Origin: an uncultured Gammaproteobacteria bacterium
Lineage (GTDB): Bacteria; Patescibacteriota; Patescibacteriia; UBA9934
DNA: 64,000 nt
Assembly: GCA_964394565.1 (NCBI GenBank)
Contig: CAYMYA010000001.1
Span: 4,124-68,123, forward strand
Direction: 5' to 3'
The translations under genes were made by a program, and so were the position numbers. This document shows, piece after piece, positions 9,695 to 63,469 of this stretch. The notes under the pieces are model-generated. The model was not told where the DNA came from and ran no database searches. It saw only the letters and a list, made by a program, of their open reading frames with translations. Positions within the stretch are counted from its first letter, which is position 1. The number at the start of each line of letters is the position of its first letter.

Positions 9695-9717
9695 GTTGCG
9701 TGTTACAATGGGTGTGT

Positions 9718-10299
9718 ATGTCACGTCCCATTTTGGTTGAAGTCATCCCGTCGCACGTCCATCTTTCCGAAACGCATCATCGGATCCTCTTCGGCGAGCG
9801 GCATTTTGGCACGGTTCACCAGGAATTGAGTCAAACCGGGCAGTTTGCGTACACGGAAACGGTTGATGTAGTGGGGTCGAATGGGAAACAGATCGCGCTG
9901 CGCGTTCTTGGACCCACCCGAAAGACCACGCAGGTTGAGCTGACGCCAACGGAAGCGGCGCTGCTCGGGATCGATGCGCAGGTCGCGATTTCTGGGAATC
10001 TCGTCGGCGCGGCAGATTGTATACTCCGCACGACATTTGGGAGCGTAGAGGCGCAAAAGTCCGTCATTCTTCCGCAGATGCATATCCATCTTTCTGATGC
10101 AGATGCACAAACGCTGCGAGTGCATCACGGTGCAATAGCTCGTGTAGAGGTCATTGGTGGCGGTTCGCGTGTGCTCGAGAACGTTTTGATTCGTGTTCAC
10201 CCAACGTATCGAGCGCGCATGCATGTTCATGCCGACGACGCTCGCGATCTTTGGCTGCATGCGGGGACTCACGTCCGCATTCGTGATATTCAAAAGTAA
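9718..10299 (+). CDS. pduL: PduL/EutD-type phosphate acyltransferase (phosphotransacetylase-like)
   Basis: Two PduL repeats: VGSNGKQIALRVLGPTRKTTQVELTPTEAALLGI and LPQMHIHLSDADAQTLRVHHGAIARVEV align with Salmonella PduL (VGPKGQLKNVRLLGPLR...; AQRHIHMSPLDAL...). Confidence 0.8.
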   Translation: MSRPILVEVIPSHVHLSETHHRILFGERHFGTVHQELSQTGQFAYTETVDVVGSNGKQIALRVLGPTRKTTQVELTPTEAALLGIDAQVAISGNLVGAADCILRTTFGSVEAQKSVILPQMHIHLSDADAQTLRVHHGAIARVEVIGGGSRVLENVLIRVHPTYRARMHVHADDARDLWLHAGTHVRIRDIQK

Positions 10300-31706: not shown

Positions 31707-33488
31707 TTACTGTTGAATACGAATATTGATGTGATCAGGAATTTCTGGAAAATGGCGTTGCCATGTGTGAAAGATTTCTCGTGAGATTTTTGCCGTAAGC
31801 ATTCCGTGACGTTCGACAAGATGAGGGATGAATATCGAGGGGAGATCTTCGCGTGACGCGTGTTCAAATGTGACGATGACGCCAAATGGTGGAAGGAGAT
31901 ATGTCTGTCGCATTGCACATTCGTGCATGAGCACGTGCTCTGGTCCAAGCAATGTCAGGAGCCGATCGCGTGCGATGGTTTGAATGATGCATTCGGCATG
32001 TTCTCGTGCGGCGAAATGTTGGAGTCGCTGAATTTTCCGTGCAGTCTTTTCGGCACCACGAAAATCTCCCGGGGTATAACCTACGTCGGCGAGGAGTTCG
32101 GCGACAAGCCCGAACCCATAGGTGTGGAAGGGAATGAGCACACTGCTCCAAAAATATTCCGTCACGACAACGATATCAGCAGTGAGATCTATACGCCCTT
32201 TCTCGATCTGTCCGATGCTGTGAGAAGGGAATACGACTTTGAGATCGTCGACAATGCGCGCACCGCCCACAAGCCTTGGTCCTACTTTCTGTGAGCCACA
32301 GGCGGGACATGTTGTTGGCTTCCACATTTCCGCACCGCAGGCTTCGCAAAGAAGATCTTGCAGCCGCACGACGGGAAGGTTTCCGCACGTTCCGCAAAAT
32401 GGCACATGGCCACAGTCTTTACACTCTAGACGTTTTGCAACGCCTTTGCGGTTTAAAGAGAGTAGCACTCTTTTTCCGCTATGTAAAGCCGTTTTTATGG
32501 CCTCTAAGAGTGTTTGTGAGAGGAGTGGATAGCCGCTTGATTCTCCGCGGTTTGTGGTGTCAAGAATTTGCGGCGCAGAAGCCTGATATTGAGCGGAGAG
32601 ATGTTCTTGACGCGGTGTCTGATCAGCGCGCGCACACGAATGCTCGGTTATTGGTGGAAGAGCATCGGTAAGAACAAGACGCGCCCCGTGAAGCGCTGCG
32701 AGTGCCGTTGCGGTACGGACGGCATCGATGTGGGGATTCCGCAGTACACTCCCATGATCTTCACACGCCGCTTGAACCACAAGAATGGTTTCCAGAGACT
32801 TTGGTTCAATCAGTACCGTCTGTCGTGTACCGACAAGGAGTTGATGATCGCCGCGCTTCCATGTGCGAAGTACTGCATTCCGATCCGATGGTTTTGTTTT
32901 CCCCGTAAGGAGCATGGGACGGAACGGGCTCAGGAGCTTTTCAAAAAAACGTGCATCACGTTCTCGCGGGACAAGAATGATGGTTTGGCCACGAGCAGAG
33001 GTTGTGAGCGCATGAGCGAGGACGGCGACGGTTTCGTCATCTGTCGCGAAAGATGCATATGGGGATTCGCGGATAATTTTCAGCATGCTGCGTACCACCG
33101 TGATGATATCTTTTGGTATGGAAAATGAAGGGGAGGCTCCGGGATTCTGAACCGAGAACGATGCGTCATATGGCAGAAATCCCTCAAACGCAACACTAAG
33201 AATAGACGACATCGATTGTCCGAGCTCAGTTGCAATGGTGTGCAGATGCTTTCGTTGCGTTGCGCTGACGGAAAACAGTGCAGGCGATGGTGACAGTTCG
33301 ATCACACGTGGCTCTGCGGTCGTCTCGCAGATTTCTTGAATGAGGCCAAACATTGGACGGTGGCGGAAGGAAATATTGACGATATCGCCAACGCGAACAG
33401 GACTTCCGTTTGGGATACGGTAATCGAATGCCCCAAACCGTCGGGGAAGTTTCAAGATCGGGTATATTTTTGCGAACACAATCATCAA
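31707..33488 (-). CDS. priA: primosomal protein N' (PriA)-like, Walker A (P-loop) degenerate
   Basis: A PriA-like N-terminal 3'-DNA-binding domain and a helicase-core alignment to E. coli PriA (GQTIILVP ~ GKQALVMVP; LLVGTRQTVL ~ IVIGTRSALF) are present. So is the Cys-rich zinc region (CKDCGHVPFCGTCGN...CEACG...CPACG). The GxxGSGKT motif is absent. Confidence 0.75.
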   Translation of the reverse strand: MMIVFAKIYPILKLPRRFGAFDYRIPNGSPVRVGDIVNISFRHRPMFGLIQEICETTAEPRVIELSPSPALFSVSATQRKHLHTIATELGQSMSSILSVAFEGFLPYDASFSVQNPGASPSFSIPKDIITVVRSMLKIIRESPYASFATDDETVAVLAHALTTSARGQTIILVPRERDARFFEKLLSPFRPMLLTGKTKPSDRNAVLRTWKRGDHQLLVGTRQTVLIEPKSLETILVVQAACEDHGSVLRNPHIDAVRTATALAALHGARLVLTDALPPITEHSCARADQTPRQEHLSAQYQASAPQILDTTNRGESSGYPLLSQTLLEAIKTALHSGKRVLLSLNRKGVAKRLECKDCGHVPFCGTCGNLPVVRLQDLLCEACGAEMWKPTTCPACGSQKVGPRLVGGARIVDDLKVVFPSHSIGQIEKGRIDLTADIVVVTEYFWSSVLIPFHTYGFGLVAELLADVGYTPGDFRGAEKTARKIQRLQHFAAREHAECIIQTIARDRLLTLLGPEHVLMHECAMRQTYLLPPFGVIVTFEHASREDLPSIFIPHLVERHGMLTAKISREIFHTWQRHFPEIPDHINIRIQQ

Positions 33489-34278: not shown

Positions 34279-35646
34279 TTACTCGACGGCACCAAGATCT
34301 GCGCCGACCTTGTGAAGATTTAACACGTCATCGCTCACAAAGACAATATTTTCCCACGCGTACCCATAATCATTGAAGGTTTGTTCGCTATCGATTGCGT
34401 GACGCTTTCCTTCAGCAACAACGTACACCGTTGGATTTTCCATGGAACGCACGAGTGTTCCATCGGGAAGTTTCAGAAACGCCCCTTCGCGGTATTGTTC
34501 AATTTCTACTGGTTCTGCGGATTCTATGCGTGCACTCGGCATTTGCGCTTCAAGAATCGCGGGATCCAAAATTGCCATGCGCTGGCCGTCTTTGAGGAGA
34601 AACATTGCTCCGTTTTTCAGCTGCACCACGCGACCTGACGGATCTTGTGTCGCTGCAGTGATTGGTTCGCCAACTTCGTATGTGGCAACTTCTTGTGCGG
34701 TAATCTCAATGAGTTCCGCTTCAGAAAAGCCTATTGAACGAAATGCTTCCATGGATTCAATATGTCGCATGGCATCGTCAACAAGCAGATAAATATTTCC
34801 ATGTTCATCCTTGACAAGAGAATAATTTGCTAACGATATTTCATCGCCGACCGGATATTGCTCAAGAACTGTGGATGCAACCGTAATGATGAGACGAGCA
34901 TTATAGCGCGACGTCAGTGCGCTTTGGCTGGTGATGGGTCGGCGATACCCTTGTTCAATACGCCACACGCCGCTTTCACCCGCAGCCTGCAGCAGTGTTC
35001 CAGTCGGATATTCTTTTCCGAACCATGCATCCCAAATTTTCACAAAGTTTTCATTGCCGTGCAAATGGGGCGTATATGCATACATTGCTGCAGTCGCAGC
35101 ATTGAATGGTACGACCGTGGTTCCGTCAATGTTCACGGGGACATTCGTGCCATATTTTCCCGCGGTCACTCCGTACGTTTCGATGTCCGCTAAATATCCC
35201 TCGATAAATTGCAATGAAGCAGAGTTGATTTGCTTTCCAAATCCCTGCCAACGCGAAACACCGGCATCGGTCATGGAACAATCGTCACATACACCGTAAC
35301 CTGTCGCCCAATCGTATTGTTTTTCAGTGGGATCTTGATCTTCAACGAGACTCTGCTCTTTTTGCAGGAGGACTAAGAGGAAGCGAGGATTGATGCCGTG
35401 TTGTTGTGCGGCGCGCCAAATAATGTCTGCTGCATTGCGTGTAACGCCTTCCCAGTCTGCGGTGCGATACTCTGCGAGTGTCCCGCGTTCCAAAAATGCT
35501 TGGATCTGATTTCGATCCATCGCTTGAGCATCCTGAAGTTCTTCATCTGAAATGATATAATTTGGATTAAATGCCAAAGCGCTGGCTGGCAAAAGGAGGG
35601 CAAAAAATCCCCCAATGGTACTAAGAAGCAGTGATCGTATAATCAT
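34279..35646 (-). CDS. secreted hypothetical protein (possible cell-wall hydrolase-like)
   Basis: The start is set at MIIRSLLLSTIGGFFALLLPASALA (signal peptide), with a ~430-aa mature region and no clear motif. Confidence 0.55.
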   Translation of the reverse strand: MIIRSLLLSTIGGFFALLLPASALAFNPNYIISDEELQDAQAMDRNQIQAFLERGTLAEYRTADWEGVTRNAADIIWRAAQQHGINPRFLLVLLQKEQSLVEDQDPTEKQYDWATGYGVCDDCSMTDAGVSRWQGFGKQINSASLQFIEGYLADIETYGVTAGKYGTNVPVNIDGTTVVPFNAATAAMYAYTPHLHGNENFVKIWDAWFGKEYPTGTLLQAAGESGVWRIEQGYRRPITSQSALTSRYNARLIITVASTVLEQYPVGDEISLANYSLVKDEHGNIYLLVDDAMRHIESMEAFRSIGFSEAELIEITAQEVATYEVGEPITAATQDPSGRVVQLKNGAMFLLKDGQRMAILDPAILEAQMPSARIESAEPVEIEQYREGAFLKLPDGTLVRSMENPTVYVVAEGKRHAIDSEQTFNDYGYAWENIVFVSDDVLNLHKVGADLGAVE

Positions 35647-35742
35647 ACGTTCACAGTATAGCGAACCCCTCGTGCGTTGACACGTTTCGCCTGGGGAAGC
35701 ATTATTTGGCCGTAGGATACGTATAATTTTCTTCATCACATT

Positions 35743-36330
35743 ATGGCAAACCTTTCCGTTCCAATTCAAAAATTTATGCCGAATTTGCTCCATCTTTTGT
35801 CGCCTTGGGCAAATGAGGAAAAGCGTATTCTCAATGGTTTGATCGAGGTAAATGCGCGAAGCATTAACAAATATGAGTTCATTACAGAAACAGGCCACCT
35901 AAAGCTCGACCGGGTTGGTTACTCAACACTGTCGTATCCTGGAGCATACGGATTGATTCCTCAAACGTGGGACCAGGATAACGACATGCTGGATTTTATT
36001 CTTGCGAATGTCACGGAAACGCTTGTCCCTGGATCGCTCGTGGAATTGCGCGTGATTGGGATTATGAAGTTTGAGGACGGCGGAGAAATTGATGACAAAA
36101 TTATTTGCGTTCCTGCCGACGATAAACGATCTGATCACATCGTTTCGTATAAAGATTTGGGTGCGCATTGGGAAAAGGAAACTGCACATTACTTTGAGTA
36201 TTACAAACACTTGAAAAAGCCAGGAACATGCAAGGTACTCGGATTTTTCGAGGCCGACGAAGCGGTAAACGTCATTCGCGAATGCACTGAAAGGTATCGT
36301 ACAGAAATCCTTCCGAAGATCGAGGGGTAG
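35743..36330 (+). CDS. ppa: inorganic pyrophosphatase (family I)
   Basis: NKYEFITETGHLKLDRVGYSTLSYPGAYGLIPQTWDQDNDMLDFIL matches the family I PPase core. Confidence 0.85.
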   Translation: MANLSVPIQKFMPNLLHLLSPWANEEKRILNGLIEVNARSINKYEFITETGHLKLDRVGYSTLSYPGAYGLIPQTWDQDNDMLDFILANVTETLVPGSLVELRVIGIMKFEDGGEIDDKIICVPADDKRSDHIVSYKDLGAHWEKETAHYFEYYKHLKKPGTCKVLGFFEADEAVNVIRECTERYRTEILPKIEG

Positions 36331-55400: not shown

Positions 55401-55790
55401 TTAAATTTCCCGTGCTCCCGCGGTCATACTGAGAAACAGTGCCTCAACAAGTGCTGCAAGCACGACAAGAATCAGCATCGTTCCTAAAGAAAACAACTCC
55501 TGAGCGAGCAAGATGAGCGACGTCATACACAATAAGGCAAGCACAATGCCCTGACGTAATGAACGTGCCACAGCCTGATCGATGGGCTTTTCAGGCGCTC
55601 TCCAGGCACGAAACACTGTGCCCGCCATGGTGCACACACCAGCGACGCCAGCACCAAGAGTGAGATAAAAAACACCATACGCCAATAACCCTGCGGTAAC
55701 AGGGTCGATAGCGAGCATTACAATGCACCAAGACGAAATGCTCATTGCGGTACCCAGTGCGAGTACCACAAGATATTGTCGAAGCGTCAT
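55401..55790 (-). CDS. hypothetical integral membrane protein
   Basis: 129 aa with 4 TM helices. Confidence 0.45.
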   Translation of the reverse strand: MTLRQYLVVLALGTAMSISSWCIVMLAIDPVTAGLLAYGVFYLTLGAGVAGVCTMAGTVFRAWRAPEKPIDQAVARSLRQGIVLALLCMTSLILLAQELFSLGTMLILVVLAALVEALFLSMTAGAREI

Positions 55791-55807: not shown

Positions 55808-56149
55808 CTAAAATCTGCCACGCTCAATCTGCACTCGTGGTGTGATGGTGTGTACTTCTGCCTCAGGAACCTCTTCTCCTAATCGGGCAAGAATTTGTGG
55901 CGTCATCCCGTCGAGATCATATGATGCCCCCGCATTATCGCATCCAATGACGAGAACGCCATTCGCGTAACTAATGACCCGAATATCACGACATAAGACA
56001 CTATCACCCAGCAATTCATCTAAAATCTCATTCGCACGATCAACAATAATCGCCGCGGTGACTTGCTTCGTCACACCATGACGACGTAGCGCACCGTCAA
56101 GTAAACTACCAAGTTTTGTCAGCGAAGCACGGCGCTTAGATTTTTGCAT
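55808..56149 (-). CDS. DUF721 (DciA-like) domain protein
   Basis: About 113 aa from MQKSKRRASL with the DUF721 pattern (LGSLLDGALRRHG...IVDRANEIL...GVLVIGCDNAGAS). Confidence 0.5.
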   Translation of the reverse strand: MQKSKRRASLTKLGSLLDGALRRHGVTKQVTAAIIVDRANEILDELLGDSVLCRDIRVISYANGVLVIGCDNAGASYDLDGMTPQILARLGEEVPEAEVHTITPRVQIERGRF

Positions 56150-59069
56150 ATGGGCAAATATCTTTAAAATCACAAAATTGACATTGCGGACCAGGCGTTG
56201 CTTCAAATGTAGAGGTGCGGATACGTTCCATCGTTTCACGAATTTGCAATTTGAGCTTTTCTTTATCTTTATCTGTTGGCTCAAAACTCACGGCAGTATT
56301 GGATTCGATGTAATAGAACGTGAGTTTTTTAACGTGCAGTGGCGGGACAAAACTTTCTTCACCGGCGATAGCGTAAAGAATTAATTGTCGACGATCATCC
56401 CAATCAAGCGTTTTTTTCGGGCTCCCGGTTTTATAATCGATTATTTCTACACCGCCGGGCACAGTATCGATACGGTCGATGCGCCCCTTTACCAAGACGT
56501 CTCCAACTTTCAAGGTAAAGCCTTTTTCTAAATATTTTGGAGACGGAGGGTTTTTTACAAGCATGGCGTAATATTCTTTCAGATATATCCTGCCACGTTC
56601 ACGATAATCGTCACGCGTCGCAGAGTCGGGATACCATTCGTCGATCCATGCCGCATCATACATCTCCATGAGGTCATGCAATGTCGGCATCGCAACACGT
56701 TCAGATGGTGCACCAAAAAGCGACGACTGCATGAGCGCGGTATTCGCAAGAATACGCTCCATGAATCGCTGTAACGTATCGTGCACGGATTTTCCAAAGC
56801 TCATTTGGTGTTTGCCGTATGATGGAACGCCAATAATATGCGCATATTTATATTGTTGCGGGCAATTCGAGAACGCGGCAATTTGCGAAAAGCTGATTTT
56901 ATCAGGAACATGGATGTTTGCATTCCCTGCAGCCGACAGTTTTGCATCACCAACGATATCGTTCATAGCATTCCCGCGCAAAGGCGCTGTGATCGTTGGA
57001 GAATACTCAAGCTCGGTCAGAAAACGTGATATCTTTTTCTTTCGCGCCCCTCCGTAATCTTCTGCGCTCATCAGATACACGCCTTCCTTTGCACGTGTAA
57101 TCGCAACGTAAAACAGCCGACGCTCCTCTGCGATATGATCGTCGAGCGCAACATTCGTCTCAAGTAGCCCTGGTGGAAAATCTATTGCATGTGAACGCCC
57201 GACTGACGGGAATCGCTGTTCGACTAAGTTTACTAAAAAGACATAACGAAATTCCAAACCTTTTGAACCATGTACCGTCATGACCGAAACAACATCCGGT
57301 CCTTCTTCTGGGTTTTGCATTACCGCACCACTTTCTCCAGCTGCACGCTCGGCGTCAAATTCGTCTAAAAATCTCGCGAGCGTGACGTCGTCATTCGTGA
57401 CAGAAAATCGCTTCAATCGTGCAAGAAACCGGTTCAGAAGCCGATAAAGCTCCTGTTGTTCGAGCTCAGAAAACGCCTGACAATCCGCAAGGAGTCCTGT
57501 TTCTTTCACGGTTGCCACAAAAAGCTCAATAACAGGAAGACGTTTCGCGCGATCACGTAATGCACCGATAGTGCCAACGATATCCAAAATTCGGTTCCGC
57601 CCATCCATACTTATTCCAGCGGCATCAGCGTACGAGAGTAAATCAAACAAAGACATCCCCTTGCGTTTTGCATAAAACATCAACGCGGCAAGGTCACCCT
57701 GCATCAGTCCAAGTCTCGGATGAGAAAGGATACGGTACAGTGATGGGCTATCGTGAGGCGCATGAATGACGCGCAAATACGCAAGCGCGTCTAAAATAAT
57801 CGGTTTTGTATACAATCCAGACATCGCAAGAAATCGATATGGAATTCCGGCGCGCTCGAGCGCTTCGAGAAATGGGTCTGCATGATCATTGCCACGAACG
57901 AGAATCGCCACATCGCTCCATGCCGCTCCCTGGGTATCGTGCAGTGTTGCGATCGTGTGTACCGTTGTTTCTACCTCTTCTTCAAGCGTTGCGGCATGAA
58001 TATGGTGTACGAACCCCTCATGCGCAGTGTGAGAACGCAATTGTTTCGATAACCCCTCTGTGATTTCCAGACGATGCGGATTGTTTCCAGAAATCAAGCT
58101 ATACGCCAAATCTAAAATCACTTTCCCGCTTCGGTAATTATGTACAAGAACAATCTTTGTCGTCTCCGGATAATCTTCCCGGAACCGAAGAATATTTGCG
58201 AGCGCGGCACCACGGAATTTATAAATTGCCTGATCATCATCACCAACAATCGTGAGATTATTTTTGGGAGCAGCGAGGAGTCGCACAAGTTCATACTGCA
58301 CACTATTCGTGTCTTGAAACTCATCGACGACAATATATGAATATTGTTCCCGATATTTCGCAAGAATATTTGGTCGTGTACGAAAAAGTTCGACGGTGTA
58401 CGCAAGCAAATCGCCGAAATCGAGCGCGCTTTCCCGAAGCAAGACGTTCTGATATGTCGCGTAGGCCTGTGCAACTTCCTGATATTTTTCCAGTTCAAGT
58501 CGCTCCTCTTCTGGCAGCGCAAGGACGTTCCGTGCATCGCCGTCTGTCGCACGTTCAATCATCTTCTCGACGTATTTTTTGTATTGATCAGGCGAAATAC
58601 CTTCATCTTTTGCACGTGAAAAATGCCCGAGTAGTACACGAAAAAATTTTGTCGGGTTCCCACGCGGACGGTAATACTCCAATGCGAAATCCGCAATATG
58701 CTTTCGCATCATGAGCCATGTATCGACTTCGGAAGCAACAGTAAAATCCTGCGGTATCCCAATGTCCACACCGTGTTCACGTAATACACGTTCGCAAAAG
58801 GCATGAAACGTAGAAATGGAAAGATCAACATACCCAAGCGGCAGAAGCCGATCGACGCGTTCCTCCATTTCATTCGCCGCTTTATCCGTAAATGTGAGCG
58901 CAAGTATACCGTCTGGCGTCACCTTCCCTTCTGCAATGAGCCATGCGATACGTTTGGTAATGACCGTGGTTTTTCCCGTTCCTGCACCAGCAATAATCAT
59001 GAGCGGCCCCTCTCCATGGGTTACCGCTTTGACCTGCTCGTCGTTCAGGCCGTCTAAAAGTACATTCAT
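56136..59069 (-). CDS. UvrD/PcrA-family DNA helicase fused to C-terminal PD-(D/E)XK Cas4-like (4-Cys) nuclease domain
   Basis: Walker A AGAGTGKTT and UvrD motifs. The C-terminus has GRIDRID...EIIDYKTG plus the Cys pattern C-x(n)-CQFCDFKDIC. The start is set at MNVLLDGLNDEQ. Confidence 0.85.
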   Translation of the reverse strand: MNVLLDGLNDEQVKAVTHGEGPLMIIAGAGTGKTTVITKRIAWLIAEGKVTPDGILALTFTDKAANEMEERVDRLLPLGYVDLSISTFHAFCERVLREHGVDIGIPQDFTVASEVDTWLMMRKHIADFALEYYRPRGNPTKFFRVLLGHFSRAKDEGISPDQYKKYVEKMIERATDGDARNVLALPEEERLELEKYQEVAQAYATYQNVLLRESALDFGDLLAYTVELFRTRPNILAKYREQYSYIVVDEFQDTNSVQYELVRLLAAPKNNLTIVGDDDQAIYKFRGAALANILRFREDYPETTKIVLVHNYRSGKVILDLAYSLISGNNPHRLEITEGLSKQLRSHTAHEGFVHHIHAATLEEEVETTVHTIATLHDTQGAAWSDVAILVRGNDHADPFLEALERAGIPYRFLAMSGLYTKPIILDALAYLRVIHAPHDSPSLYRILSHPRLGLMQGDLAALMFYAKRKGMSLFDLLSYADAAGISMDGRNRILDIVGTIGALRDRAKRLPVIELFVATVKETGLLADCQAFSELEQQELYRLLNRFLARLKRFSVTNDDVTLARFLDEFDAERAAGESGAVMQNPEEGPDVVSVMTVHGSKGLEFRYVFLVNLVEQRFPSVGRSHAIDFPPGLLETNVALDDHIAEERRLFYVAITRAKEGVYLMSAEDYGGARKKKISRFLTELEYSPTITAPLRGNAMNDIVGDAKLSAAGNANIHVPDKISFSQIAAFSNCPQQYKYAHIIGVPSYGKHQMSFGKSVHDTLQRFMERILANTALMQSSLFGAPSERVAMPTLHDLMEMYDAAWIDEWYPDSATRDDYRERGRIYLKEYYAMLVKNPPSPKYLEKGFTLKVGDVLVKGRIDRIDTVPGGVEIIDYKTGSPKKTLDWDDRRQLILYAIAGEESFVPPLHVKKLTFYYIESNTAVSFEPTDKDKEKLKLQIRETMERIRTSTFEATPGPQCQFCDFKDICPYAKI

Positions 59070-59076
59070 GCAAATA

Positions 59077-60339
59077 TTATAACGTTGAAAGTCCTTGTGC
59101 GATGTCAACAAAGAACCGAATGCCATTTTGCGTCCCAATATACCAACTGAGGGCAAACAATGCGCCGCATTGGAGCACGACAACGATCGGGGAAATCTTC
59201 CACCGCACCGGCAGGAGCACAAGGGCGTCATCGTGCATACTCATACGCAGTGCAAGGACTCGTGCAGCAACAGAGCTCATCACGACAATCCAGGCACACA
59301 TCAAGACGGCCGTTGCGATAATATGAAACTGCAATCCGTACCCCATGCCGATCATCATGCTCATAAACATGCCAGAAACTGGCATACCTATACTTCCCAA
59401 GAGTACAAACACGAGCGCGCCAGCTGTAAGCGGCAGAAGCGAGAACGTATTTCGCAAACCAGAAAACTTCGTCGTTTTATACGTTGCGTGCAATATTCCG
59501 GACAGCGCAAACATCGACGAGCCCAATACCGCAGTTGCGGAAAGATGCATCAGAGCGGGAATCGTGCCTGCAACACCCATCCCCATAAAGGCAATCAGAA
59601 TGCCCACATGAAACATCAACAGTTCTGCAAAATATTTCTTGTAATTCTTTTGCCACACCAGTGTTCCGGCAAGCACAACAACAGTGAGCACACCGAAAAA
59701 CAACAATATTCCGCCGGTCCATACCCCGCCGTCAGCAAGCATGCCGTCTACCACGATACGCAGGCGGAGCATACCGTAGACGCCAAGAATGGTTGTAAGC
59801 GGAGCAACGAGCGCAGCAATGGGAGACGGAATTTTGCTGTACAGTTCCGCGAGCCCTGCGTGCATTGGCGCAAGACCGAGCGAAACCCCGTACCCAAGAA
59901 GGGTGCAGACGAATGCCGTACGTGCAACAAGCTCCATTGATCCAAATTGTAATGGGTTATACGTCAACACCACCAACCCAAATGCGCTCAACAATGCACC
60001 GAGCAACAGCCGCACGCTCAAGCGTCGCGCAATAACCCCGTTCGTATTGCGTTCATACAAGGATAGGCTACAAACCGAAATTGCCCCAAGCGCATGGATA
60101 CTAATCCATATCGCGACTGCGTGCGAAAGCAGCGTGCCGATCGCACCCGCAATCACCGCCCCCGCAACACAAAATACCGCGTACATTCTGTGCTTCGGAG
60201 CAATAGCGCCGGCACTTCCTTCGTGTCGAAATACGTTTATACTCATCAGAACCCCTGATAGCGCGACACACCCTGCCAGCACCGCTACAGCAATGCTCGC
60301 GAGATCTGGGTTCCACAGGGCAAGAAAAAAATTATTCAT
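59077..60339 (-). CDS. divergent proton-antiporter-like membrane subunit (complex I NuoN/MrpD/HyfF family, PF00361-like)
   Basis: 420 aa, about 14 TM. LGLAPMHAGLAELYSKIPSPIAALVAPL aligns with the NuoN/M motif GxKLxAVPFHxWxPDxYxGAPTPVSA, with substitutions. Confidence 0.55.
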   Translation of the reverse strand: MNNFFLALWNPDLASIAVAVLAGCVALSGVLMSINVFRHEGSAGAIAPKHRMYAVFCVAGAVIAGAIGTLLSHAVAIWISIHALGAISVCSLSLYERNTNGVIARRLSVRLLLGALLSAFGLVVLTYNPLQFGSMELVARTAFVCTLLGYGVSLGLAPMHAGLAELYSKIPSPIAALVAPLTTILGVYGMLRLRIVVDGMLADGGVWTGGILLFFGVLTVVVLAGTLVWQKNYKKYFAELLMFHVGILIAFMGMGVAGTIPALMHLSATAVLGSSMFALSGILHATYKTTKFSGLRNTFSLLPLTAGALVFVLLGSIGMPVSGMFMSMMIGMGYGLQFHIIATAVLMCAWIVVMSSVAARVLALRMSMHDDALVLLPVRWKISPIVVVLQCGALFALSWYIGTQNGIRFFVDIAQGLSTL

Positions 60340-60341
60340 AT

Positions 60342-61109
60342 TTACACGTTAGGGAACCATAGTGTCACCAGAATTGAGAGAACAGCCAGTGCAGTCGCAA
60401 AACGCATCATGCGCACTGGCGATACCGTCATAAAGCGTTTCACCGCCATTCCCAATGCATCCATCAAGACAACACTCACAAGCACTTTACCCCCCAAGAT
60501 GCCGATGGCCAAAACCCAGACGTCGTGTGTGATTGAAGTTCCCATCGTGATCATCGCAAGAGCATTGACAAAAAGTACGCCAAACGCTGCCCGCAAAAGC
60601 ATGGTGACATCGCGCGTATGATCAGACGGTTTCTCCAACGCGACGGCTAGCAGGAAGAGGGCAAACGCAACAAGAGCAAGAACCACCCCAAACGTTGGAG
60701 TTTGTGCAAGGAGAGCAAGCACCTGACCAGTACGTAATTGTGCTGTTGCAACCCCAAACGCGAGAAACACCGTGCCAAATCCACACAATGCCAACGGCAA
60801 TACCGACGTCCTCTCAATTACCGCAATGCTACCCCCAATAAGCGCGAAGAGTGCAATAAACGTCAAAATATTTCCGTCGCTTGCTTGATCAACTGGTACG
60901 TGGATGAGCGGCAAAAGTGCGAGAGAAACCGCTGTCGCACCGAATGCAAGTGCAGCAACCGGAGACGGGACTCGTCGATACGCAACCCACGGGGGAATCC
61001 AGGTTTTGTGCTGTATCACGGAAACAAAAGTTTCCCAAAGTCCTGCCGCAGATGGCGCAAGGATGAGAAGAGCGAGTGTCTGAAGAACCGAGAATTCTAA
61101 AAATGTCAT
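60342..61109 (-). CDS. hypothetical polytopic membrane protein (between the two antiporter-like subunits)
   Basis: 255 aa with about 7 TM helices, sharing an operon with its neighbours (4-nt overlaps). Confidence 0.5.
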   Translation of the reverse strand: MTFLEFSVLQTLALLILAPSAAGLWETFVSVIQHKTWIPPWVAYRRVPSPVAALAFGATAVSLALLPLIHVPVDQASDGNILTFIALFALIGGSIAVIERTSVLPLALCGFGTVFLAFGVATAQLRTGQVLALLAQTPTFGVVLALVAFALFLLAVALEKPSDHTRDVTMLLRAAFGVLFVNALAMITMGTSITHDVWVLAIGILGGKVLVSVVLMDALGMAVKRFMTVSPVRMMRFATALAVLSILVTLWFPNV

Positions 61110-62833
61110 AACGCAATTGCGAAAGTAAGAATAACCGCGAGCATCATGAACACGAGCGAAGGTGTGACGACTCTCGTTACATAGCGGTCATGCCATGCGT
61201 ACAATGTTCGCCACTGTTCTTGCGCGGGTACCGCAATGTATTGAATACACAATTTCCGTACCTCTCGGAAAAATATATGAATACGTGCATCGGGAACAGG
61301 AGCATGTACCTGCTCCTTTGCATCCACGAAATTTCCCATCTCAATACGCAATGTTTTGTCGCGAAGCGCCCAATATGCCAGACTGCACACCATGATCCCG
61401 AGCGCGAGAACGGCCGGACGAAGCAAGGCACCCCCTGCAACAACGGCTCCCTGCCACGTCTGTGCATCTTGCGTTAAGGGCTCTGCGCCAATCGCGTACA
61501 ACGCAAACGGAACAAACACGGCTCCAACCACAGAAAATCCAGATGTCAGTATTGCTGCAACGTTCCGCCATGCAAAACGTTGTTTTGCATGAACGGCCGT
61601 CCGAATATTCTCGATGATGGCATACCCCTGACGGACAAGTGAGCCAAGTACGATCAAAAAACCCAGGGCAAGCGCGAGTGCAAATGTGCGTGGCAGAAGT
61701 GTGAACTGTAACACCATCACGCTCCCGAACATCCATTGGCTCACAAACAGAAGCGAAAGAGGAACCCCTAACCGAGCAACCCCGGAGATTGCGTACTCGA
61801 TGCCACCACCTGTCTCGTCACCAGAATTTCCCCCAAGCACCACACCGATACTCTGAATAATCGTTGCGAAAAGCACGATATTCATGGCTTCATACATGTT
61901 CAGAGATTGGAAAAGCATCGTCGCACTCAACATGAAGAGGACGAAACCGACACCATGAACACATGAGATGCCGCCAAATGCATGACGTTTAGATGCGTAC
62001 CGTGTAACAGAAAGAATCGTCATGATGCCAAGAAGTCCAACAGGAAGCGCAAACCATATATCGAGTGGTGGAAATACAAAAAGTAAGAGCCGAAGAAAAA
62101 GGTACAGCGGCGCAAGAAACCATGCCGTTTGCATGAGTGCCCGTATAGCTCCCCCAGGCACGCTACCACCATCTGCACTCGCCATGCGTGCAAATGGCCA
62201 TGCGCCGGAACACGCCAAAACACCGAGAACGATTGCACTAAATGCCCCAATCAACCGCGGGAAATCAAGTTCAGCAGCAATGTATGCCAACGTCGCAAAG
62301 TCATTAAACAATGCACCAGAAGAAAGGATGAAGAGTCCCGCCGCTATGAAAAGCACACCGATCCCCCTCACCACGAACATCCTGATGCGCTTAAACACCA
62401 CGCACGCCTCTGCACACATCAACAGCATCAATGCCGCAAGAACGCCAAGAATGTTCGTGGACAATACGAGCCACGTCATGCCGAACGAAAGCAGTGCGAT
62501 ACCGAACACGGTGAGAAACGCTTGTTCCTGAGTTTTTCGGTGAACATACCACTCTACCCCGAGTGCGAGCATCACAAGGCTAAACGGGAATATAAACATC
62601 GCCGCAAACGTATCGAGTGTTGCAACCATGCTAAAAAATGCGTTCGTTGGCAACAAAAAAGGATCGGGAGATATCACACCAAAAACACTAGCAAGCACTC
62701 CAGCGACTCCCACTGCCGCAAAAATCAACGCATTCGCACGCTGTGCCTGTTCCTGTGCAAGAAACCACATACCGATCACCGCAATAATCGGCCCAAGCAT
62801 CACCACAGCCATCGACCATTCCCAAGGCGTCAT
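61106..62833 (-). CDS. divergent proton-antiporter-like membrane subunit (NuoL/MrpA/HyfB-like)
   Basis: 575 aa, about 16 TM. AWPFARMASADGGSVPGGAIRALMQTA is a degenerate version of the [25 protein letters not shown] motif. Confidence 0.5.
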   Translation of the reverse strand: MTPWEWSMAVVMLGPIIAVIGMWFLAQEQAQRANALIFAAVGVAGVLASVFGVISPDPFLLPTNAFFSMVATLDTFAAMFIFPFSLVMLALGVEWYVHRKTQEQAFLTVFGIALLSFGMTWLVLSTNILGVLAALMLLMCAEACVVFKRIRMFVVRGIGVLFIAAGLFILSSGALFNDFATLAYIAAELDFPRLIGAFSAIVLGVLACSGAWPFARMASADGGSVPGGAIRALMQTAWFLAPLYLFLRLLLFVFPPLDIWFALPVGLLGIMTILSVTRYASKRHAFGGISCVHGVGFVLFMLSATMLFQSLNMYEAMNIVLFATIIQSIGVVLGGNSGDETGGGIEYAISGVARLGVPLSLLFVSQWMFGSVMVLQFTLLPRTFALALALGFLIVLGSLVRQGYAIIENIRTAVHAKQRFAWRNVAAILTSGFSVVGAVFVPFALYAIGAEPLTQDAQTWQGAVVAGGALLRPAVLALGIMVCSLAYWALRDKTLRIEMGNFVDAKEQVHAPVPDARIHIFFREVRKLCIQYIAVPAQEQWRTLYAWHDRYVTRVVTPSLVFMMLAVILTFAIAL

Positions 62834-63022
62834 ATCACAAATCGCTAGGATTCAATGGGCAAAGTGTATGCTCAACTGCACAGAATTCATAGAAGTGTTG
62901 TGGACGAAGCAAAATGTCATATATTCTTTTTACTAGTGTCGTAAAATATTCGTGCCCGTCGAGTTCCCTCGTATGTTGCAAATACAAAAGCCCGAGTCAT
63001 GCCCGAGCTTTTGACGGAACAA

Positions 63023-63469
63023 CTATTCTTCCCTTCGGTGTTGCCTGACCTTTCCTTTTTTCATCGCAACCCTGTACCGCGCGATTTCACGCTCCAAATG
63101 CGCAGCAGCGTCGGCATATGAAACATCATTTCGGTGACGCGCCTCTACCAGGGCCGCTTCTGCCCGTTTACGGGCTTCGTCGATTGCCGACAATTCGAGC
63201 TCTTCCACACGCTCTGCGGTATCCGCGAGCACCACGACAGAACCATCCTGGCGCACTTCGAACATCCCTGTCGACGTTGCAAGAAGTTCAAGTTCACCAC
63301 CCTTTCGTACGCGCATTTCACCCGCTTTCATCAACGTCAACAATGGAATATGGTGCGGCAATACCGTAATTTCACCCGTGCTCGTCATGATGGAAATGCT
63401 CTCGGCATCGCCTTCAAAAACCAGACGTTCTGGTGTGACAACCACATAATGGAGTGTGAGTTTCGACAT
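63023..63469 (-). CDS. atpC: F0F1 ATP synthase subunit epsilon
   Basis: N-terminal beta-sandwich (LHYVVVTPERLVFEGDAESISIMTSTGEITVLPHHIPLLT) and a C-terminal helical hairpin. Confidence 0.9.
   Translation of the reverse strand: MSKLTLHYVVVTPERLVFEGDAESISIMTSTGEITVLPHHIPLLTLMKAGEMRVRKGGELELLATSTGMFEVRQDGSVVVLADTAERVEELELSAIDEARKRAEAALVEARHRNDVSYADAAAHLEREIARYRVAMKKGKVRQHRREE

Follow-up and report, generated by a model that had tools for sequence, protein, structure and literature searches.

Bacteria of the Candidate Phyla Radiation (CPR; Patescibacteria) carry an F-type ATP synthase but usually no electron transport chain. A complex-I-like module encoded beside the atp operon of such a bacterium looks like a candidate for energising its membrane. 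In complex I and in formate hydrogenlyase (FHL), the NuoH/HycD subunit faces the peripheral arm with the loops between its transmembrane helices (TM) 1 and 2 and between TM5 and TM6, and these loops start the E-channel. Energy-converting hydrogenase-related (Ehr) complexes, a concept summarised elsewhere (PMC6349859), have a CPR-specific clade, for which the large subunits have already been described by phylogeny (Jaffe et al., 2020; PMC7304191). In other systems, DAB (DabA-DabB) and the vectorial carbonic anhydrases of the cyanobacterial Cup-NDH-1 type, a PF00361-type module is found with a beta-carbonic-anhydrase-like soluble protein that replaces the redox arm (PMC13144422; bioRxiv 10.1101/476713). 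Here, we describe a three-gene locus in a 64,000-nt stretch of DNA (hereafter, the window) from an uncultured bacterium of the patescibacterial lineage UBA9934 (GCA_964394565.1, contig CAYMYA010000001.1, positions 4,124 to 68,123 of the forward strand). The three genes, here called A, B and C, lie between atpC and a UvrD/AddA-like gene, and a first-pass annotation made from the letters alone had taken all their products for degenerate relatives of the complex I/Mrp antiporter subunits. The trio is very probably the membrane-arm remnant, HyfB-HyfC-HyfF, of a CPR Ehr complex.

The origin of the trio can be followed in a series of related contigs (L001-L019, of which L001 is identical to the window sequence). 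Their common neighbourhood consists of the atp operon, A-B-C, UvrD, DciA, a 129-aa membrane protein, MreB, MreC, MreD and PBP2. One contig, L013, was reached via the most distant relatives of A; it has the same flanks, but the genes between atpC and UvrD make up a complete cluster, in the order atpC-[378 aa]-NuoB-like-HyfB-HyfC-HyfE-HyfF-HycE-like-UvrD-...-MreB-MreC. The best NCBIfam models for its subunits are HyfF, HyfB and HyfE. When the large subunit of this cluster is aligned to HycE, none of the four NiFe Cys is present (ERISGDAAVSH and NLSYSGTD stand against DRVCGICGFAH and DPCYSCTD of HycE). In the small subunit aligned to MbhJ, three or more of the four FeS Cys are absent. L013 thus has neither the four Cys ligands of the NiFe site (RxCGxC...DPCxxC) nor the full set of proximal FeS Cys of a true group-4 [NiFe]-hydrogenase, and even its complete Ehr seems unlikely to carry out redox chemistry, although its membrane subunits retain all of the relay residues. 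These Cys losses match the CPR-specific clade (PMC7304191).

Gene C is recognised directly. Its product passes PF00361 with 36 bits (cut-off 21.5), so the family assignment made in the first-pass annotation stands for this protein, and its best NCBIfam model is HyfF (81 bits, far under the cut-off of 543). Sequence matches in the PDB are NdhD and MBS subunits, and a tblastn search with residues 60-494 of the L013 HyfF aligns with C at 28% identity (E 3e-39). C, which is shortened by about 50 residues at its N-terminus, is a degenerate HyfF-type antiporter-like subunit.

Gene A has no direct sequence match in Pfam, NCBIfam or the PDB, and only eight relatives were found among 5.8 billion clusters. 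A profile of the A family retrieved 24 proteins from 1.84 billion representatives. These form a graded series, two members of which (P0041 and P0044) pass PF00361 at 52-55 bits, and the profile reaches HyfB/NuoL-type proteins of 660-677 aa with both PF00361 and PF00662 (E 1e-17 to 1e-9). The AlphaFold2 model of A (pLDDT 84, pTM 0.82) has the 14-TM core of the antiporter fold with discontinuous TM7 and TM12 helices, broken at residues 210-214 and 356-360. Foldseek matches it best to E. coli HycC (7z0t_C, TM-score 0.69, E 3e-11), then to MrpD and NuoL, all with a probability of 1.0. At its C-terminus, A has a long helix and a terminal TM that recall the lateral helix and its anchor in HycC/NuoL. 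Two arginines, R517 and R523, do not vary, the terminal TM is conserved, and canonical HyfB has about 30 extra residues in this C-terminal region. Gene callers place the start of A at Met8 (568 aa; the 62812-62833 region of the window), but many homologues conserve the N-terminus upstream of it, MTPWEW(S/A), and the 575-aa reading from 62833 is therefore favoured. A is a degenerate HyfB/HycC-type antiporter-like subunit, linked to the PF00361 family by profile and fold.

Gene B did not directly match anything in the libraries searched (Pfam, NCBIfam and PDB), and a word-indexed homologue search returned B itself alone. Orthologues of B were collected from the syntenic loci. In hhalign, the whole length of the resulting family aligns with the L013 protein of PF00146 (probability 97.5%, E 6.7e-12), and the profile matches HycD (7z0s_D) at E 4e-10; the intermediate 289-aa B of L014 matches the L013 HyfC by BLASTP at 8e-21. 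The AlphaFold2 model of B (pLDDT 82; one of five models confident, from a shallow alignment that included one canonical HyfC) finds its best fold match in HycD, with a TM-score of 0.65, and then in NuoH/ND1 chains. Homology to the NADHdh family, PF00146, is thus supported by profile and fold, with no direct Pfam match. The TM1-2 loop and the Glu-rich TM5-6 loop (EAExE...EYSG), which are present in the L013 HyfC and in HycD, are deleted in B and its close relatives, so that B is without the loops that line the cavity and E-channel of a functional NuoH/HycD. B is a shrunken HyfC/HycD/NuoH-type subunit and not antiporter-like. Accordingly, the proposed kinship with antiporter subunits holds for A and C, and for B it had to be abandoned. 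Since the middle gene is NuoH/HycD-like, the trio corresponds to a Hyf/Ehr membrane arm rather than to an Mrp-like set.

What has become of the proton-relay residues in these proteins? Columns with an invariant Glu, Lys or His in canonical relatives (the L013 subunits included) were compared with the window proteins. The two degenerate motifs quoted in the first-pass annotation, AWPFARMASADGGSVPGGAIRAL in A and LAPMHAGLAELYSKIPSPIAAL in C, occur verbatim and are in register with the TM7 motif of canonical relatives, GxKxGxxPxHxWLPxAHxxAPxPxSAL. In the TM7 motif of A, Lys is replaced by Ser and His by Ala215, and the WLPEAH stretch is gone; in that of C, Lys is replaced by Ser153, Trp by Gly, Asp by Glu165 and His by Tyr, while His160 is kept. 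Outside TM7, the canonical residues are substituted in A at every position compared: TM5 Glu by Met136, TM8 Lys by Gly287, TM11 His by Val331, TM11 Lys by Gly335 and TM12 Glu by Gln366. In C, TM5 Glu has become His82, TM11 Lys Gly273 and TM12 Glu Met328, and the only axis residues retained are H160, K234 of TM8 and H265 of TM11. The central charged axis expected of a proton-translocating subunit is therefore not intact in either protein, whereas the canonical and L013 homologues retain all of its residues. The degeneracy first read from the motifs is thus confirmed at the level of residues. The further remark that the downstream conserved Lys is not evident is right for A but wrong for TM8 of C, where K234 is kept; at the TM12 position C has Met. 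Together with the absence of HyfE, these substitutions and the loss of the loops of B leave no canonical ion path and no docking surface for a redox arm.

The partner subunits were sought directly. In tblastn searches with the hydrophilic subunits and HyfE of L013, none was found in the window or in ten syntenic loci, and a Pfam survey of 40 further open reading frames (ORFs) of the window gave only housekeeping, cell-wall and glycosylation genes, with no respiratory or Mrp genes. Hence the statement that the window holds no other complex I, Mrp or hydrogenase genes was correct. Large and small subunit genes, which would accompany the membrane genes in an Ehr complex or group-4 hydrogenase, are missing within the 64 kb. 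Instead of the seven genes mrpA-G there are three, flanked by atpC and uvrD, with no Mrp families among the window ORFs; nor is there an adjacent DabA (PF10070). A DAB system was rejected on this last ground, and a true hydrogenase because the window has no large or small subunit gene and the L013 cluster has no NiFe Cys.

The related contigs can be arranged by how much of the complex they keep. L013 has the full Ehr with all subunits present (A/B/C of 677/317/498 aa). L014 and L016 have the arm only (615-624/281-289/439-440 aa), with many key residues intact. The window clade has an arm-only trio of 575/255/420 aa, in which the key residues are mostly lost. As the intermediates still hold many of the axis residues, the loss is graded from canonical through intermediate to window forms. 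L010-L012 have A (571-578 aa, without the terminal TM) directly before C (376-405 aa) and no B; in this two-gene clade it is A that has the more canonical TM7 motif (FPMHRW...VPAH) and C that has lost it wholly, the reverse of the window. Still more divergent trios, matching no Pfam family, occur in L018 and L019. In a tree of UvrD, L013 is outermost and L014 next, followed by two groups, one of the window with L004-L006 and L009 and the other of L010-L012; the stages just described run parallel to this branching order.

Are these genes still maintained? Between the same genome pairs, identity is 46-51% for A, 33-41% for B and 54-56% for C, compared with 82% for UvrD, 83-85% for AtpC, 93-95% for MreB and 66-69% for MreC. 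The three genes thus evolve much faster than their neighbours, and constraint on them appears clearly relaxed. The ORFs are nevertheless intact in at least 12 contigs. In the closest pair (L011-L012, of the two-gene clade), the ratio of nonsynonymous to synonymous substitution rates (dN/dS, Nei-Gojobori) is 0.08 for A and 0.12 for C, as against 0.01-0.02 for UvrD, MreB and AtpD and 0.06 for MreC; the trio has values of 0.1-0.3 in other pairs. All these ratios are rough, as dS is saturated (>1.2) in every pair, and pairs with the window itself are uninformative, dS being saturated or undefined. Even so, the values for the trio still lie far from neutrality, as is expected under purifying selection. 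Reduced forms keep ancestral structural motifs (GLFILSSGALFxDF and YGxxR) and have in common derived motifs absent from canonical HyfB (FQxLxxYEAMNxxLFA and GAxPLT..TW); motifs confined to the reduced forms point to a new constraint. From such sequence comparisons we conclude that A, B and C are probably made and constrained, but not for canonical pumping.

The following history accounts best for the locus. In an ancestor of this patescibacterial lineage, a complete Hyf-type Ehr cluster very probably stood between the atp operon and uvrD; by then its NiFe site was gone, and so were three or more of the four Cys of its FeS cluster. At this site the lineage then lost the NuoB-like, NuoCD/HycE-like and HyfE subunits, and the three remaining genes shrank and shed nearly all of their proton-relay residues while staying intact under purifying selection. 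The products of A, B and C may still assemble into a complex-I-like membrane subcomplex, since A still has the fold, the broken helices and the lateral helix. Such a subcomplex would have lost both redox-driven pumping and canonical cation/proton antiport. It may be kept for a role independent of the relay, most plausibly as a membrane platform for structure or docking. Among more distant relatives, a neighbouring gene appears to encode a carbonic-anhydrase-like protein. The origin of the trio is the firm part of this account; that the remnant without a peripheral arm still forms a subcomplex, kept for a structural or docking role and not for pumping, is the function that we somewhat favour. 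It agrees with the stand-alone, possibly non-pumping module that was among the readings first offered, and the evidence favours this one among them.

Several points weigh against this account. The function is deduced solely from what has been lost. C retains three axis residues and A has E142 in most close relatives, so some ion conduction may be possible. The loss of B and of the terminal TM of A in L010-L012 suggests that the module is partly dispensable, which fits slow decay too. The saturated dS leaves the selection argument approximate, and the predicted fold of B depends on the shallow alignment and single confident model noted above. Finally, the search of this genome covered 64 kb, and genes for peripheral subunits or for a partner may lie outside this stretch.

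The alternative that survives best, though we regard it as rather unlikely, is that the trio still translocates ions, as a divergent Na+/H+ or K+/H+ antiporter or as a proton leak or channel; it would do so with non-canonical residues and might serve or balance the neighbouring F-type ATP synthase. The antiporter fold with its discontinuous TM7 and TM12 helices is retained, C keeps H160, K234, H244 and H265, A keeps D74 and, in seven of eight close relatives, E142 of TM5, the genes seem to be under purifying selection, and their place beside the atp operon is conserved in most loci. However, A and C are both without the TM5 Glu/TM7 Lys pair and without the TM12 Glu/Lys, residues on which every antiporter-like subunit studied depends, E142 is not conserved in P0008 or in L009-L012, and both the NuoJ/K-like HyfE and the Glu-rich loop of B are gone. 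The position beside the atp operon is of little help to this alternative, since it is shared with UvrD-DciA-MreB as part of a larger synteny, is seen even with the full Ehr and does not hold in L018, whose trio has SulP and carbonic-anhydrase-like genes upstream. It is inherited synteny, and adjacency to atpC alone is not evidence of functional coupling to the ATP synthase. The divergent Na+/H+ antiporter among the readings first offered is likewise improbable, given the lost residues and the absence of the MrpC/E/F/G genes from the window.

It is improbable that the three genes are functionless remnants heading for deletion, with little or no expression and with ORFs open by inertia. They are the fastest-evolving genes of the neighbourhood, they shrink progressively (A 677 to 615 to 575, B 317 to 289 to 255 and C 498 to 439 to 420 aa) and B is wholly lost in L010-L012. 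On the other hand, ORFs of 575, 255 and 420 codons have stayed open across lineages with dS >1.5, dN/dS of about 0.1-0.3 is well under 1, invariant and newly derived motifs are conserved together with an ATGA overlap of A and B, and the trio architecture persists in very divergent lineages and in another context (L018 and L019). CPR genomes are strongly streamlined, and dead DNA should vanish from them quickly. A complete but split Ehr complex, in which genes at other sites of the genome would supply the trio with NuoB-like, HycE-like or other partners, is less probable again: the window covers 64 kb of a genome of about 1 Mb and split operons do occur, but it is through the loops deleted from B that the peripheral arm is contacted in complex I and FHL, about ten syntenic contigs, each with up to 20 kb around the trio, carry no such genes, and the complete form in L013 has all of its subunits in one cluster. 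An ordinary Mrp antiporter or complex I fragment, for which only the PF00361 match of C speaks, was rejected as scarcely credible, because the best models are Hyf and not Mrp or Nuo (with all scores far under family cut-offs), the middle gene is of a NuoH/HycD type that Mrp does not have, no MrpB/C/E/F/G or Nuo genes are present and the signature residues are missing.

A further clue to the ancestral system comes from the gene next to it. The position between atpC and A is occupied in L013 by the gene for the 378-aa protein together with the NuoB-like gene, and in L018 the gene at this place upstream of A encodes a protein of 337 aa. In L018 (BLASTP 1e-10) and L019 (hmmsearch 7e-6), a homologue of this L013 protein of 378 aa is encoded just upstream of the divergent trio. 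Neither the L013 nor the L018 protein has a Pfam match, but a profile of the two, compared with the PDB, matches the beta-class carbonic anhydrase 3las_A at E 1.4e-4 and the carboxysomal CsoSCA (2fgy_A and 9skx_A) at E 4e-4 to 2e-3 over about 137 residues, and nine of the top 11 matches belong to the beta-carbonic anhydrase superfamily. Conserved residues are C34-x-D36-x-R38, H90 and C100, in the motifs CxDxR, His and GCAYW; in the alignment they fall on the zinc site and the Asp-Arg dyad of CsoSCA. The soluble protein is thus a beta-carbonic-anhydrase homologue, closest to CsoSCA. A hidden Markov model of the L013 and L018 proteins found no match in the window, and the closest relatives of the window have no such gene, so that it informs on the ancestral system rather than directly on the window trio. 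By analogy, the neighbour hints that the cofactor-less CPR Ehr works in a DAB/Cup-like way. That the CPR Ehr is not a redox enzyme but a CsoSCA-like carbonic anhydrase docked on a complex-I-type arm, and that the arm-only trios form a new, charge-depleted class that does not pump ions but gives such a partner, or the neighbouring ATP synthase, a membrane platform or conduit, is an extension that we put forward as doubtful. At the same place between atpC and A, L014 and L015 have a 187-aa orphan ORF with no Pfam match, in which no similarity to the L013 carbonic-anhydrase-like and NuoB-like proteins was detected.

As to the layout of the locus (Table 1), A, B, C, atpC and the UvrD/AddA-like gene all lie on the minus strand of the window, in the order atpC-A-B-C-UvrD-DciA-129aa-MreB-MreC. 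The trio consists of real genes and not of chance ORFs, as orthologous trios occur in at least ten other contigs. Coordinates, lengths and direction are as first annotated, and so is the position downstream of atpC, with a gap of 189 nt. Of the 4-nt overlaps first described, the ATGA between A and B is real and recurs at the HyfB/HyfC junction of L013 and at the A/B junction of all other loci, whereas B and C are separated by a 2-nt gap (TAA-AT-ATG). The UvrD/AddA-like gene starts 7 nt past C. All three proteins are strongly hydrophobic (grand average of hydropathy about 1.0-1.2); statements on hydrophobicity and helices rest on these values and on the AlphaFold2 helices. Scans for promoters and terminators around the cluster, including the spacer between atpC and A, scored no better than chance, and an Rfam scan of the window had a tRNA as its sole match.

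Table 1. Coordinates of the three-gene cluster, of its relatives and of other features; plain numbers refer to the window.
Feature	Location	Strand	Length, description or basis
Gene A	61106-62833	-	575 aa, degenerate HyfB/HycC/NuoL-type antiporter-like subunit
Gene B	60342-61109	-	255 aa, shrunken HyfC/HycD/NuoH-type subunit
Gene C	59077-60339	-	420 aa, degenerate HyfF-type (NuoM/N-like) antiporter-like subunit
A/B stop/start overlap (ATGA)	61106-61109	-	4 nt; read from sequence; translational coupling
A, C-terminal long helix (517-552) and terminal TM (558-574)	61112-61285	-	AlphaFold2 secondary structure
A, degenerate TM7 motif	62135-62203	-	residues 211-233; alignment with canonical HyfB-like proteins
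C, degenerate TM7 motif	59809-59874	-	residues 156-177; aligned to GTKxGLAPMHTWLPDAHSxAPxPxSALLSG
Spacer between atpC and A	62834-63022	-	189 nt; read from sequence
atpC (F-ATPase epsilon), upstream	63023-63469	-	ORF; PF02823 recorded in the identical contig L001
UvrD/AddA-like helicase-nuclease, downstream	56136-59069	-	ORF; Pfam domains of orthologues
129-aa predicted membrane protein	55401-55790	-	between DciA and MreB
PduL-type phosphate acyltransferase	9700-10299	+	PF06130, E 7e-47
ORF beside LigB-family gene	31707-33488	-	593 aa
ORF beside LigB-family gene	34279-35898	-	539 aa
L013 NuoB-like small subunit	L013:2140-2676		
L013 HyfB			677 aa; 485 bits to HyfB model
L013 HyfC			317 aa; PF00146
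L013 HyfE			219 aa
L013 HyfF			498 aa
L013 NuoC-NuoD/HycE-like large subunit	L013:7816-9432		538 aa
Carbonic-anhydrase-like gene, directly upstream of Ehr or trio	L013:826-1962		378 aa
Carbonic-anhydrase-like gene, directly upstream of Ehr or trio	L018:1776-2789		337 aa
Carbonic-anhydrase-like gene, directly upstream of Ehr or trio	L019:1-609		
Two-gene A-C locus	L010:6272-9199		A directly before C
Two-gene A-C locus	L011:10001-12964		A directly before C
Two-gene A-C locus	L012:10001-12868		A directly before C
187-aa orphan ORF	L014:9307-9870		between atpC and A
187-aa orphan ORF	L015:632-1195		between atpC and A
F-ATPase c subunit	L001:871-1077		same organism, just past the window end

Some other genes of this organism deserve mention. 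The 129-aa predicted membrane protein, which has no Pfam family, is present in every related contig at 57-78% identity and is more conserved than A, B and C. The F-ATPase c subunit has its carboxylate in an AEAIAIY context, with no Ser/Thr beside the Glu and no Gln in helix 1; judged by the Na+-binding signature, the c ring is presumably of the H+ type rather than the Na+ type. Elsewhere in the window, the PduL-type gene fits the fermentative metabolism, with substrate-level phosphorylation, expected of a CPR bacterium without a respiratory chain, and two large ORFs that flank a LigB-family gene have no Pfam match at E<=1e-5.

These results bear on how such loci should be read. As a stripped Ehr remnant without the canonical pumping residues, the trio should not be annotated as antiporter or hydrogenase-4 subunits, nor be counted as a source of proton-motive force. 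The contig series amounts to a natural dissection, from the full Ehr through arms with and then without the residues to a two-gene form, and it suggests that selection can maintain an antiporter fold whose charged axis is gone, a point of interest for what other roles antiporter-like subunits may have. For cofactor-less CPR Ehr complexes, the carbonic-anhydrase-like gene beside the cluster in relatives suggests a function that can be tested. In the literature, of which our coverage is incomplete, so that this is absence of evidence only, we found no description of an arm-only, charge-stripped trio or pair, of a series decaying in place or of the carbonic-anhydrase-like neighbour.

Among known systems, the trio is closest to the CPR Ehr complex as found in L013, to whose HyfB, HyfC and HyfF the products of A, B and C are orthologous, in the same position and order; it differs from this complex in having no large, small or HyfE subunit and in the loss of charged residues that the L013 subunits have. 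The membrane arm of E. coli FHL, HycC-HycD (7z0s/7z0t), provides the best structural matches of A and B, and the gene order hyfB-hyfC-...-hyfF of Hyf (hydrogenase-4) is kept, but the trio has no catalytic module, the relay residues and the Glu-rich loop of HycD are missing, and sequence identity is only 12-16%. MrpA/MrpD of the Mrp (CPA3) antiporters have the PF00361 antiporter fold in common with the trio and work without a redox module; Mrp, however, requires MrpA-G and an intact Glu/Lys relay and has no NuoH-like subunit, and in each of these respects the present locus differs. The likeness to DAB and Cup is seen in L013, L018 and L019, where the CsoSCA-like gene lies directly upstream; the carbonic-anhydrase-like protein is not DabA, and DabB retains its charged residues.

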